A DNA stretch of 64,000 nucleotides from Armatimonadota bacterium. Lineage in GTDB: Bacteria; Armatimonadota; Fervidibacteria; Fervidibacterales; Fervidibacteraceae. Position numbers and translations under genes: made by a program. Below the pieces are notes generated by a model that did no database searches, was not told where the DNA came from, and worked only from the letters and a program-made list of their open reading frames with translations. The stretch lies in assembly GCA_032160945.1 (NCBI GenBank), contig JAVHTL010000003.1, one strand, 5' to 3'. Positions 50,401 through 53,400 of this stretch are shown in pieces; position 1 is the first letter of the stretch; each line of letters begins with the position of its first letter.

Positions 50401-53400
50401 TAAAATCGGATGGCAAATGGGCATTGTTCGCCAAATGGTGAGTTACGCCAATAAAGGCGGATGGTGATGGCAACAGGTTTTTCGGTTTTGGGCAATGGCA
50501 CTGCAATGTCTTCCAACACAATGTCGGAAAACGGCTCAACGCGACGGGGGATGGAAACTTCAATTGTTTTGCCGCCTTCAATGCTGATACGAACGACAAT
50601 GCCGCGAGTCTTGTCAGCACATTCGCTTGGTGGCAACCAAGCAACTTCGCCTGTGTTGCCCAACTCAAGGCGCAAAAAGATGCGGTCAACTTTTGGCAAG
50701 TTGGCAACAGGCAGGTGGGCAGATAGGATGGTAGGGGCAATTTCCTGCCAGTTTTGCCCGTCAGCGGAAATCCAAACGGCATTGATTTCGCCGTTGAGGA
50801 ACTTCGGCGGTTTGCCCGGAGCCCAAGGCGTGTTACCAATGGCGACTTCTGGGCAATCATCGGAAGTTTTGCTTGTCCCATCCGTGACAAGCACAACTTG
50901 TTTGCCTTCACGCACCAACTTGGCAACTTCGTCACCGTGTTTAAGCCAAAGTGCCATTGGACCTCTGGCGTTTTCATCACGGTCAATGCGGATCGGGACG
51001 AGGGACGCGGGACGGGTGACGGGTTTTAAGGACGAGTTTGTCAAGATTGTGCTCCATCGTTTTGCAACTTCGGCAGCAGGTCTCAGTGTCCCATTAGGGT
51101 TGACAATTCCGAAGTCACTTCTCTCGTCCACGCGGTAGCCACCGGGGAACCACCAAGTCATCGCGCCGTCAGCATCGCTGACTTGCATCAAACGATACAT
51201 CATGTCGTAAAGTTTCGCTTGTGCTTGCAACCGTTCAGTGTCACGATACCAGTCAAGCGAAAAAGTGCCGTGACGAATTGTCAAGCCAAATTCCGCCCAG
51301 AAAACAGGTTTTCCTTTACCTGCCCATCTCGCATACGCAGTGATGAAAACAGCACGAGCAAACTGCTCTTCATCGGCTTGCCCAAGCCAACCTAAGTTCC
51401 AACCTTCGGGAGAAACGAAATCCAAATGCTTTGCACCTGCCGTGTGGTCAAATGGGAAGGCGCTTTCGGCTCCGAAAGGTCCACCACCGTAACCTGTCCG
51501 AGCACCGATAAGGTGGTTTGGATCAATTCTGCGAATGAAGCGACAAACTTGACAATACTTCCGGCTGATGAAATCGTCAAGGAAGCGACGATAGGCTGCT
51601 GCCATAACTCGCCAACCGCCGTCGTTGAGCAAATGTTCGTCACGAGGGACAGTCGGATTGCCGTTTTCGTTGCGGGGCAACTTGAAGCCCCAATCCCTTT
51701 CGGCGTTTTCAACGCTTCCATATTGTTCAACCAACCACATCCGCCATTCCGCATCGTGTCTGCGCCGTTCGTTGTAACCACCCCAATGAGGCTCCCAAGC
51801 GATATCGTAGGCGAACATTGCAGGCTGGTTTGCCAAATCCGCCGCTTCAATCAATTGCCGAACCAAATCGGGTTGAAAGTGCAACGGGTGTGCTCCAGCG
51901 ATGAACAAGTTGACCCTAATACCGTGTTCGTAACAGCGTCGCAAAAAGTCACGCAAAGGCAATGCTTGGCGCAAGTTCGTGTATTGAACGCTCACGCAAT
52001 TCATCCCCATCTCCCGCAAGATGCGCAGATCTTGTTCAACGAGTTCTGGGTCGTAATTTGTTGGGTCAAGCCAATGTCGCCAGTAATCGCTTTGATCCTG
52101 CCCGGCGACATATCGTGGCCAATAGTTAACGCCGAAAGCAAACCAACGGCGTTCTTCGGGGACGGGGGACGCGGGGCGGGGGACGCGGATAATGAAGTGA
52201 CCGTCCTTGACAGTTATTTTGTCCGCTTCGGTCACTTCGGGGCGCTCAGTGACAACAAGTTCATGTCGCAACTCGTCAACGACTTGACCGGACAAAAGCA
52301 ATTGCACGCCAACGGCAAAATTGCCCGTAGGTAGCGGAGGTAAATCGTAAGCAATTGTCGCCAAATTTTGTCCGTCCAATTTCACCGCTTCCGTTCGTTC
52401 GTGCACGATTTGACCGTTTCGCGTGACAGCGATGCGGATACCGATTTCTTTGTCCGTTGTAGCACTGTTGACGATAACTGCGCCAATTTTCACTTGCTCG
52501 TTGATATAAGCGGTGAACCTGTCCGCTCCCGCTTCAAGAAGCCAAACCCCATTGCGCCACTCATTGCATGTTCGCTGCAAAGCGGTTCGCACGACCTGCC
52601 AATTTTTCAGCCAGAAATTTTCGTCGGCTGAGCCAAAAACGAGCCAAGATGCGTGCGGGTATGGCAACGATGCGTAACGGACGAACCAAACAAGCGCTCC
52701 CCGTTCAATGCCTTTCTCGTCAGCAACGATTGTCAATGGCGTCCATCGCGTCGCTCGTTCCCCGTTCGTGAACCCCAAGCCTCGCCATCGTGGGACAGGG
52801 GCAACGGCATCGTTGGGAAGGCGAACCTCCTGATGAGCCAATTTTCCCGTTAAATCCTGATTTGCAGACCTGCCCACCCGCTGACTTCCCAAAGTTTTGG
52901 GCTCGGCAGGAGCCTCGCCCTCCATGTCCCGTGTCCCCTGTCCCGTGTTCCGCTCAATCGGATAGAGTTTGTAAACTGGTGACAACGCTTCCAAAACTGG
53001 CGGTGCGAAATCAATGGCGACATCGCCAAACGGGTCAGGTGCAGTGCCGATGCCAGCGACCCAAATTGTGTGATTGCCTTGCGGCATCGGCGCTTCCATG
53101 CCCAAAACGAGCGCTTTCGCGTTTTGAGGGTTGAACCTGTCGCCAGCGAAGCCTCGTTTGCCACGAGTGGGGCTATCTTGTCGGAAAACGAAATCACGCG
53201 GCGACAAAACGATGAGTCGCCACTCCGTTGTCAGCAGCACATGTGTGAACCAGCGAGTCCCATCGGTTTCTCTCCATTCAACGAGCAGCGACTTAGTCTG
53301 CGGTGCTCCCTTTGCCCAAAGGCAAGTGAGCGAGTGACCTTGTGGAAACGGGGGCTTGTCAAACTCGCGAACGAAAATTGCCCAACCTTTCAAAGTGAAG

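Follow-up and report, generated by a model that had tools for sequence, protein, structure and literature searches.

How does a palindromic DNA repeat come to form part of an enzyme? This question is raised by a 64,000-nt stretch of contig JAVHTL010000003.1 (assembly GCA_032160945.1) from an Armatimonadota bacterium of the family Fervidibacteraceae, here called the window, in which a 108-nt element with inverted arms lies within an open reading frame (ORF) for a multidomain glycoside hydrolase. An earlier note on this DNA had described the element as a doublet resembling repetitive extragenic palindromic (REP) sequences, inserted in frame and translated, and had drawn a parallel to the Rickettsia palindromic elements (RPEs). 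Our analysis bears this description out: the repeat is dispersed, its tagged hairpin covaries, it flanks RayT-like genes, it has full-length homologues in intergenic DNA, and the frame is open in all eight orthologous DNAs. We consider it highly probable that a copy of a dispersed REP doublet turned into coding sequence.

Two inverted REP units within the coding frame

The repeat finder located the inverted repeat at 52816-52839 and 52900-52923 (arms of 24 nt, complementary at 19 of 24 positions or 79%, spacer of 60 nt), and Tandem Repeats Finder located a heptamer in 4.0 copies at 52925-52952. The structure given in the earlier note, i.e., arms, 19/24 complementarity, 60-bp spacer and four heptamers, all in frame, is reproduced exactly. 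The reverse complement of the second arm reads GGAGGGCGAGGCTCCTGCCGAGCC. Doublet and heptamers lie entirely and in frame within the minus-strand ORF 50400-54602, the translation of which includes NTGQGTRDMEGEAPAEPKTLGSQRVGRSANQDLTGKLAHQEVRLP and, along the element, ...YKLYPIERNTGQGTRDMEGEAPAEPKTLGSQRVGRSANQDLTGKLAHQEVRLPNDAVAPVPRWRG.... The 24-mer arm found no match in 100 shuffles of the window and has no second copy within these 64 kb; pairs of GGGACAS-type heptamers were observed seven times, with 0.8 expected. RNA folding of the 166-nt region yields -80.4 kcal/mol (z = -5.3 versus shuffles). Contigs of independent runs (X12 contig 9, X1 contig 1) span the region without a gap, and hence it is not an assembly artefact.

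The architecture of the repeat unit was derived from words of the form G[GT]AGGG-N6-N4-N6-CC gathered from 271 loci, where the search pattern fixed the two outermost pairs and left the inner six free. Repeated variants share the tetranucleotide GGAG, an 8-bp stem GGNNNNNN, a TCCY loop and the complementary strand NNNNNNCC, which amounts to a unit of 24-25 nt. They comprise GGCGAGGC/GCCGAGCC, GGCGAACC/GGTGAGCC, GGCGAATC/GATGAGCC and GGCGAAGC/GCTGAGCC, and further GGTCGTGC/GCACGACC, GGCGCATC/GATGCGCC and GGCACGGC/GCCGTGCC. Across 16 variants, 83.6% of the stem cells are paired (61.2% in shuffles), 28 cells are changed on both sides in a compensatory manner (9.4 in shuffles), and the covariation score is 0.50 compared to 0.12 in shuffles (0 of 500 shuffles as high), with slid controls at 0.12 or below. 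The 5' tetranucleotide GGAG is invariant in the family and differs from the GT[AG]G and CGTC tags. Judged by sequence and covariation, each arm is a tagged imperfect palindrome and as such a REP unit.

The first unit of the window agrees with the family consensus in 24 of 25 positions and reads (M)EGEAPAEP in the sense frame; the second belongs, in slightly degraded form, to the GGCGAAYC/GRTGAGCC subtype and no longer folds as a unit hairpin. By their stems, the arms of the window represent two REP subtypes, inverted relative to each other: one is GGCGAGGC/GCCGAGCC, the other GGCGAACC/GATGAGCC with slight damage. This difference, not decay, accounts for the five mismatches between them. Chance low complexity was ruled out as the origin of the element by its 24/25 agreement with a unit that recurs hundreds of times, as well as by the end-to-end alignment with intergenic copies described below. 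The absence of stop codons from all six frames was dropped as a special property of arm 1, as 65% of composition-matched shuffles are likewise stop-free.

Dispersal of the repeat and its Fervidibacter-type copies

Far from being confined to one gene, the arm is highly repeated. Its 22-nt core occurs exactly in at least 120 genome loci (one genome per species), most of the listed ones in Planctomycetota. Other listed hits belong to Verrucomicrobiota, Kiritimatiellae, Victivallales, Chthonomonas, Fervidibacter, Acidobacteriota, Nitrospirales and Ignavibacteria, and still others to Gemmatimonadaceae, Binatia, Zixibacteria, Anaerolineae and some Proteobacteria; binning errors in metagenome-assembled genomes (MAGs) may inflate this list of taxa. 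For the variant represented by arm 2, metagenomes yield at least 120 loci. Among the matches listed, there are 234 arms and 65 hairpin pairs of plus followed by minus orientation, with loops of 7-129 nt, and 53 of the 128 variant arms have arm 1 upstream. Doublet boundaries are sharp at GGGAGGG...CCCTCCC, and the flanks are unrelated. Only 8 of the 128 variant arms are located inside long ORFs, i.e., a few percent are intragenic. In hot-spring assemblies, the sequencing depth over the 41-nt bin 52874-52914, which covers part of arm 1, is 36-850 times the depth of the gene, the value of 36 stemming from a 4.2-Mb assembly which carries the gene at about 98.5% identity. The core is also found exactly in 22 viral or proviral contigs of IMG/VR (L249-L270), so that such contigs are a possible route of spread between lineages. 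One of these, L260, contains two full doublets 2.7 kb apart. In place of inverted doublets, the unit forms same-orientation tandem arrays with a spacing of about 103 nt in L076 (6056-6283, Kiritimatiellae), L053 (5000-5669) and L093 (7810-7940).

The element belongs to a subfamily of doublets in a format typical of Fervidibacter, the intergenic copies of which consist of three parts: arm 1, a spacer gaaatgatcggcaggtcgtgagatgggcaggtcggcag...ggaata of 42-66 nt, and the arm-2 variant GGCTCAYCRGGAGGTTCGCCCTCCC. Such copies were identified at L001:799, L059:4905, L145, L152, L172, L175, L186, L199, L210, L237 and L244. The 108-nt element of the window aligns end to end with the intergenic copies L001:799-900 and L059:4905-5019. 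Its spacer, GGGCAGGTCTGCAAATCAGG...GGGAAAATT, shows homology to the (GGCAGGTCG)n spacers found in intergenic copies from Fervidibacter, with which it has the motifs GGGCAGGTC and GGGAAAA in common (L172, L186 and others included). Apart from L001:799-900, the arm is intergenic in the Fervidibacter loci L003:14193-14217 and L007:7193-7217 as well. All nine metagenome copies of this type are flanked by other non-coding repeats. Doublets of this type are often nested in the form ..GTGTTCGGAAA doublet ATTGGCTCAATTTCCGAACACACTCA.. (L059 4880-5060, L001 740-960, L186, L199, L210, L244), which suggests insertion of the doublet into the loop of a second repeat family.

Association with RayT-like genes

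A motif scan of all loci revealed two ORFs with PDH[VI]HLF...WQS...Y[VI]R[EN]NPVRHGL. One of them matches the Pfam family Y1_Tnp (E = 2e-7) and has 2427 homologues at E<=1e-10, several of which are named 'REP element-mobilizing transposase RayT' by the Joint Genome Institute (JGI), or 'transposase' in MAGs of Armatimonadetes, Planctomycetota and Phycisphaerae. In L142, an exact arm precedes the RayT-like gene, and 16 nt past its stop codon follows a doublet of exact arm 1, a 21-nt loop and the arm-2 variant. Units of the same architecture lie at most about 200 nt from a RayT-like gene in L158, L271, L272 and L276 (Planctomycetota) and in L277 (Armatimonadetes); in L275, more distant arm variants flank the gene. 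By gene neighbourhood, the family is associated with a RayT-like Y1 (HUH) transposase in all such loci examined. The arrangement corresponds to the REPtron layout, a gene for a REP-associated tyrosine transposase (RAYT) flanked by REPs, as described in PMC6006769; according to the table of that work, class 2 TnpA-REP is the class which the motifs DHVH, WQ and YVxxNP fit.

The boundaries of the doublets are in line with this type of mobility. No direct repeat flanks 49 of 64 doublets, and the others have repeats of 1-4 nt, which is the chance level; there is no target-site duplication. Its absence is expected for HUH-type mobility (IS200/IS605). A miniature inverted-repeat transposable element derived from a DDE transposon was rejected as an identity of the doublet, since target-site duplications are lacking and the genes between distant arm pairs are not DDE transposases: in L015, L021 and L260, ordinary genes and no transposase lie between such pairs.

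The element in orthologous genes and its probable history

In an alignment of 23 sequences, no part of the protein varies more than the stretch from YKLYPLR to DAVAPVPRWRG. EGEAPAEP, encoded by arm 1, occupies the same position in the window, P0001, P0003, P0005, P0006, P0007, P0008 and P0010 (71-96% identical), and A(H/R)QE(V/I)R(L/P)P, encoded by arm 2, is found in the window, P0001, P0003, P0005 and P0010. In a neighbor-joining tree computed with the linker left out, the carriers form one clade together with P0002 and P0004. The outgroups P0009 and P0011-25 have an unrelated linker of 26-33 amino acids, e.g., RKVSSINFIGMPPHKPEKLILSAPLQRAV. The segment is confined to a single subclade, with no conservation at the protein level in distant orthologues.

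In L003 and L004, the DNA of arm 1 reads GGGAGGGCGAGGCTCCTGCCGAGCC without any deviation; one or two changes are present in the window, L001, L007 and L008. The linker lengths of 195, 183, 153, 195, 96, 123, 144 and 159 nt are divisible by three in eight of eight cases, and the frame is open. At the position of the window's heptamers, orthologues have GGGACGN arrays of variable length. P0004 retains no more than a remnant of the heptamers and the last part of arm 2, and its linker has the appearance of an internal deletion. The 5' junction GACGAGGTTAAAAGG just before arm 1 is common to P0005, P0008 and P0010, with one base different in P0003 (GTTAGAAGG), and the spacer start GAAAAGTTCGGC is common to P0003 and P0005, with two bases different in P0010. 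The simplest reading would be one ancestral acquisition which replaced part of an old linker and was followed by lineage-specific deletions and expansions in multiples of three. A clean indel of about 45 residues, as predicted in the earlier note, is only approximately right; it has to be amended in that the outgroups hold an unrelated linker, which makes the event a replacement plus expansion, and in that the carriers show nested deletions and expansions.

Host protein and predicted position of the insert

The start codon of the 1400-residue ORF is uncertain; its orthologue P0001 has 1378 residues, and homologues range from 1330 to 1380. Pfam assigns residues 914-1103 to Glyco_hydro_42, a GH42-like TIM barrel (23.9 bits, cutoff 21). 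In their sources, homologues are named beta-galactosidase or hypothetical protein. Named organisms are Candidatus Fervidibacter/Fervidibacteria and Armatimonadota and, for the most distant homologue, Candidatus Hydrogenedens, and the runs which contain the window sequence are hot-spring metagenomes.

An AlphaFold2 model of residues 380-760 shows a confident beta-sandwich, a segment with a predicted local distance difference test (pLDDT) score below 50 at residues 553-591, and a second confident domain. The low-confidence segment essentially coincides with the element, which places it in an inter-domain linker. The beta-sandwich ahead of it resembles the carbohydrate-binding modules (CBMs) CBM11 and CBM4 as well as N-terminal domains of GH50 agarases. 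In the model, the element is probably a disordered, low-complexity loop or linker of about 45 residues following a CBM-like domain. The outgroup linker, modeled for P0015, contains short strands with pLDDT 60-82.

Weighing the explanations

From these observations we propose the following course of events. A copy of a dispersed REP doublet, resembling a REP doublet forming hairpin (REPIN) or a bacterial interspersed mosaic element (BIME), would have become part of the coding sequence; it would have consisted of two inverted units of different subtype around a lineage-specific spacer. By analogy with REP/RAYT systems, a RayT-like Y1 enzyme would spread such units via single-stranded DNA and leave no target-site duplication. 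The doublet and the adjoining heptamer array may have entered the linker after the CBM-like beta-sandwich in an ancestor common to one Fervidibacter subclade, where they replaced part of a short structured linker. Read-through in the sense frame, giving EGEAPAEP...AHQEVRLP, would have created the probably disordered loop of about 45 residues, presumably nearly neutral for the enzyme, which was then trimmed or expanded in three-base steps, lineage by lineage.

Several observations weigh against this course. The commonest variant of the unit has a central tandem G.A mismatch and, taken alone, folds weakly (-5.0 kcal/mol, z = -0.5, not significant), so that the hairpin rests on covariation; a relative with a perfect stem folds strongly (-10.1 kcal/mol, z = -4.9). 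Coverage by four metatranscriptome runs amounted to 0-35 reads, and those at the arm derived from other loci. In the tree of orthologues, internal branches are short and the clade members P0002 and P0004 are without arm 1, whereby a single insertion with later deletions is parsimonious but not proven. A motif scan found no RAYT in the 64-kb window, and the L158 allele, the only RAYT allele tested, is absent at >=80% nucleotide identity from X12 and X1, the assemblies closest to the window. Thus, no RAYT was located for the window's own genome. In run X16, the same allele has a depth of 67.6, near the 59-64 of the window gene there. Finally, the conservation of arm 1 at synonymous sites, detailed below, would not be expected of a purely neutral passenger.

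In run X27, 16 metatranscriptome reads at 52896-52924 have C instead of G at 52899 and loose ends unlike the window. These reads show that REP copies are transcribed somewhere in the community.

Arm 1 has a third-position identity of 0.88 (8 codons, six carriers) versus 0.60-0.62 gene-wide, which places it among the top 0.5-1.7% of 8-codon windows, and the 30-codon bin containing it has the highest synonymous conservation in the gene. This could be due to gene conversion from the many genomic copies, to selection on the hairpin, or to an age younger than the gene tree suggests. Arm 1 might thus have been kept intact as a working nucleic-acid element, be it a protein-binding or RAYT-recognised hairpin, a site of mRNA stability or RNase action, or an inter-domain translational pause, with the peptide as a by-product. 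This would fit the intact tag and stem in four of six carriers and the stable fold of the long hairpin (z = -5.3). However, P0006-P0008 lack arm 2, P0004 has a deletion of the interior, and in P0002 the interior cannot be recognised; these losses indicate that the doublet hairpin is dispensable; arm 2 of the window itself has lost its unit fold. Moreover, the conservation statistic is based on six related sequences only, and gene conversion from the many genomic copies would yield the same pattern. On balance, we regard a nucleic-acid function as unlikely. A second stretch of high third-position identity (0.83 versus 0.62 gene-wide) lies in alignment columns 360-390 (residues KPQRFLFESMNESELRRWQHHASHPDVSDR, about 53430-53520).

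A slightly weaker case can be made for recurrent events at a hot spot, either repeated REP insertion, or repeated gene conversion or recombination, with other copies or other Fervidibacter species as the source. In L003 and L004, arm 1 matches the pan-phylum consensus in 25 of 25 positions, although the proteins are 71-76% identical to that of the window; spacer lengths vary widely (15, 39 and 60 nt), and the heptamers are of the GGGACAN type in the window and GGGACGN elsewhere. Against this, several carriers have the junction GACGAGGTTAAAAGG and the spacer start GAAAAGTTCGGC in common, and the position of the element is identical in all carriers; junctions shared in this way speak for a common ancestry of the insertion, and we consider recurrence improbable.

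That the segment is missing from the mature protein, having been removed at the RNA or protein level or belonging to a pseudogene or split gene, is very improbable; nothing in its favour was found, the frame is kept with indels in multiples of three across eight DNAs and 23 proteins and no meaningful Rfam match would suggest intron-like removal (whole window at the gathering threshold, region at E<=10). A scan for tRNA and tmRNA was negative, too. A self-splicing intron or intein was rejected: the segment comprises 36 low-complexity codons without an Rfam match, and 108 nt is far too small for a group I or II intron or an intein. The conserved frame and the indels in multiples of three across species provide strong indirect evidence of read-through.

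Further repeats in frame and in the window

The coordinates of the features in and around the element are collected in Table 1.

Table 1. Features of the host gene and its in-frame repeats (window coordinates).
Feature	Position	Strand	Description
Host gene	50400..54602	-	1400-aa multidomain glycoside hydrolase ORF, GH42-like
Third in-frame heptamer run	52157..52188	-	encodes VPRPASPVPEE; coincides with a clean clade-specific 10-aa insertion
Outer-stem segment	52792..52807		in conserved AVAPVP codons; 14/16 complementary to the heptamer array; outer stem of the predicted long hairpin
REP unit 2 (arm 2)	52815..52839	+	G GGAA GGCGAACC TCCT GATGAGCC; inverted relative to unit 1; sense reading AHQEVRLP
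Doublet spacer, 60 nt	52840..52899	-	contains GGGCAGGTCTGCAAATCAGG...GGGAAAATT; sense-frame reading KTLGSQRVGRSANQDLTGKL
REP unit 1 (arm 1)	52900..52924	-	sense: T GGAG GGCGAGGC TCCT GCCGAGCC (tag, stem, loop, stem)
Four heptamers (sense GGGACAN)	52925..52952	-	abut REP unit 1; reading TGQGTRD; separate repeat class
Second in-frame heptamer run (CGTCCCG x4 on + strand)	53593..53621	-	encodes AGRGTRDGGRE; loop 9-11 aa shorter in outgroups

The earlier note had extended its proposal to a repeat-driven remodelling of loops in large carbohydrate-active enzymes (CAZymes). For this protein the idea is supported, as two further heptamer runs coincide with clade-specific insertions; a restriction to CAZymes does not, because the same REP is present in other types of proteins. 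Both intergenic and other in-frame copies were thus found. The latter are located inside the ATP-grasp domain of an acetyl-CoA-synthetase-like protein of Gemmataceae, between the domains of an Ignavibacteria DXS, in its linker, on the N-terminal side of the beta-helix in a GH29 fucosidase from Chthonomonas, and before the PD-(D/E)XK domain of a Planctomyces nuclease. A long, putatively methyltransferase-like ORF with an NPPW motif is a further candidate.

The heptamer GGGACAG is the reverse complement of conserved P-V-P codons (CCTGTCCC) 120 nt downstream (52792-52807 versus 52929-52944); this may be a coincidence or a clue to the origin of the heptamers. Heptamer arrays also occur elsewhere in the window, where the sites of three arrays are listed as 18813-18851, 5107-5135 and 5666-5704: an intergenic one of TCGCCAT (x5.6), one of CTCGTCC (x4) inside the 863-residue minus-strand ORF 2960-5551, and one of CGTTGAG (x5.6). 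TCGCNAT arrays abut REP units in L007 (7160-7217) and adjoin the REP cluster upstream of the RAYT gene in L272 (3740-3780). Heptamer arrays and REPs seem to keep company in these genomes.

At 30528-31114, the window contains 6.3 tandem copies of a 92-nt unit, overlapped by short ORFs only. This unit is composed of two GTAG-tagged palindromes of REP-like architecture, GTAG GGCGCATG CTCCGT CATGCGCC and GTAGGGCAGGGGCTCTGTCCC, and GACGAAAAAAA comes after each of them. The array has the look of a block in which members of a second REP family are clustered, comparable to the GTAG-23 blocks of T. roseum in PMC3733652.

Implications

The locus offers a clean and datable case of a REP doublet turned protein, with about ten orthologues, intergenic relatives and a candidate transposase family. 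Its host is a hyperthermophile whose many glycoside hydrolases are mined for biotechnology. To enzyme engineers, it marks residues 552-597 or so as a dispensable, repeat-derived linker, of which P0004 is a natural deletion variant. For annotation, many 'hypothetical proteins' with EGEAPAEP, GSAGASPS, ARQEPRPP, LGRSLAL and similar words are translations of one REP family. For the biology of mobile elements, the exact unit across phyla and the synonymous conservation inside a gene raise the question whether REPs are kept up by selection or by conversion.

A bolder reading, which we put forward tentatively and consider rather doubtful, is that the GGAG REP and its RayT form a single very young or strongly constrained system, its unit being exact across Planctomycetota, Verrucomicrobiota, Armatimonadota, Acidobacteriota, others and viral contigs, and that selection, or conversion driven by RAYT or recombination, actively preserves the embedded unit. 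If so, this would mean recent spread between phyla or a conserved constraint of host or transposase, contrary to vertically inherited, lineage-specific REP/RAYT pairs, and a DNA hairpin, selfish or regulatory, would in part 'own' a protein linker.

Comparison with known systems

REP doublets as units of RAYT-driven spread are the essence of the REPIN concept (Bertels & Rainey 2011, PMC3116915). The repeat described here resembles REP/REPIN-RAYT systems (PMC3116915, PMC6006769) in its tagged imperfect palindrome of 24-25 nt, the inverted doublets around a spacer, the high copy number in mostly intergenic positions, the absence of target-site duplication and the Y1 HUH genes flanked by units. 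It differs in its tag, GGAG instead of GT[AG]G, and in the central tandem G.A mismatch of its commonest stem. Its 22-25-nt unit is exact in many phyla, whereas REP sequences are usually specific for a species or genus, and the RAYT is demonstrated for the family, not in the window's own genome.

RPEs are palindromic repeats found in frame in unrelated genes, where the extra peptides are thought to be tolerated on the protein surface (PMC10969869). Common to both cases is the in-frame palindromic insertion which adds a peptide segment. However, sequence family and lineage are unrelated, RPEs measure about 100-150 bp and have a conserved encoded peptide, about half of them are intragenic compared to 8 of 128 variant arms here, and a cognate transposase family is identifiable in our case. 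Lineage, length and arm sequence make membership in the RPEs implausible; the resemblance is functional only.

A further parallel is offered by the GTAG/CGTC REPs which, as single units or dimers inside ORFs, are reported to encode 20-80 extra residues in Opitutus terrae, Thauera, R. conorii and others, including members of the Planctomycetes-Verrucomicrobia-Chlamydiae (PVC) group (Di Nocera et al. 2013, PMC3733652). As here, REPs or REP dimers lie within ORFs; the sequence of the GGAG family is not printed in the main text of PMC3733652. Differences also lie in the host, here the CAZyme linker of a hyperthermophile, and in the retention across species and conservation at synonymous sites measured here.

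E. coli BIMEs combine the REP subtypes Y and Z into mosaics with alternating orientation. The doublet likewise combines two distinct, inverted subtypes, but its sequences are others and its spacer motifs, the GGCAGGTCG repeats, are lineage-specific. Among cyanobacteria, short tandemly repeated repetitive (STRR) heptanucleotide sequences form short arrays in intergenic and coding DNA and give rise to peptides with a periodicity of seven residues when in frame. The heptamer arrays of this study share the occurrence in both kinds of DNA and differ in heptamers (GGGACRN, TCGCNAT) and phylum.

A search of the searchable literature by DNA words and translated words found no description of a GGAG-tagged REP family, the only matches being human primers. 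In-frame REPs as such are already known. The present case is set apart by the GGAG-tagged family, its lineage, the unit exact across phyla, the CAZyme linker of a hyperthermophile as host, and the retention across species with synonymous conservation.

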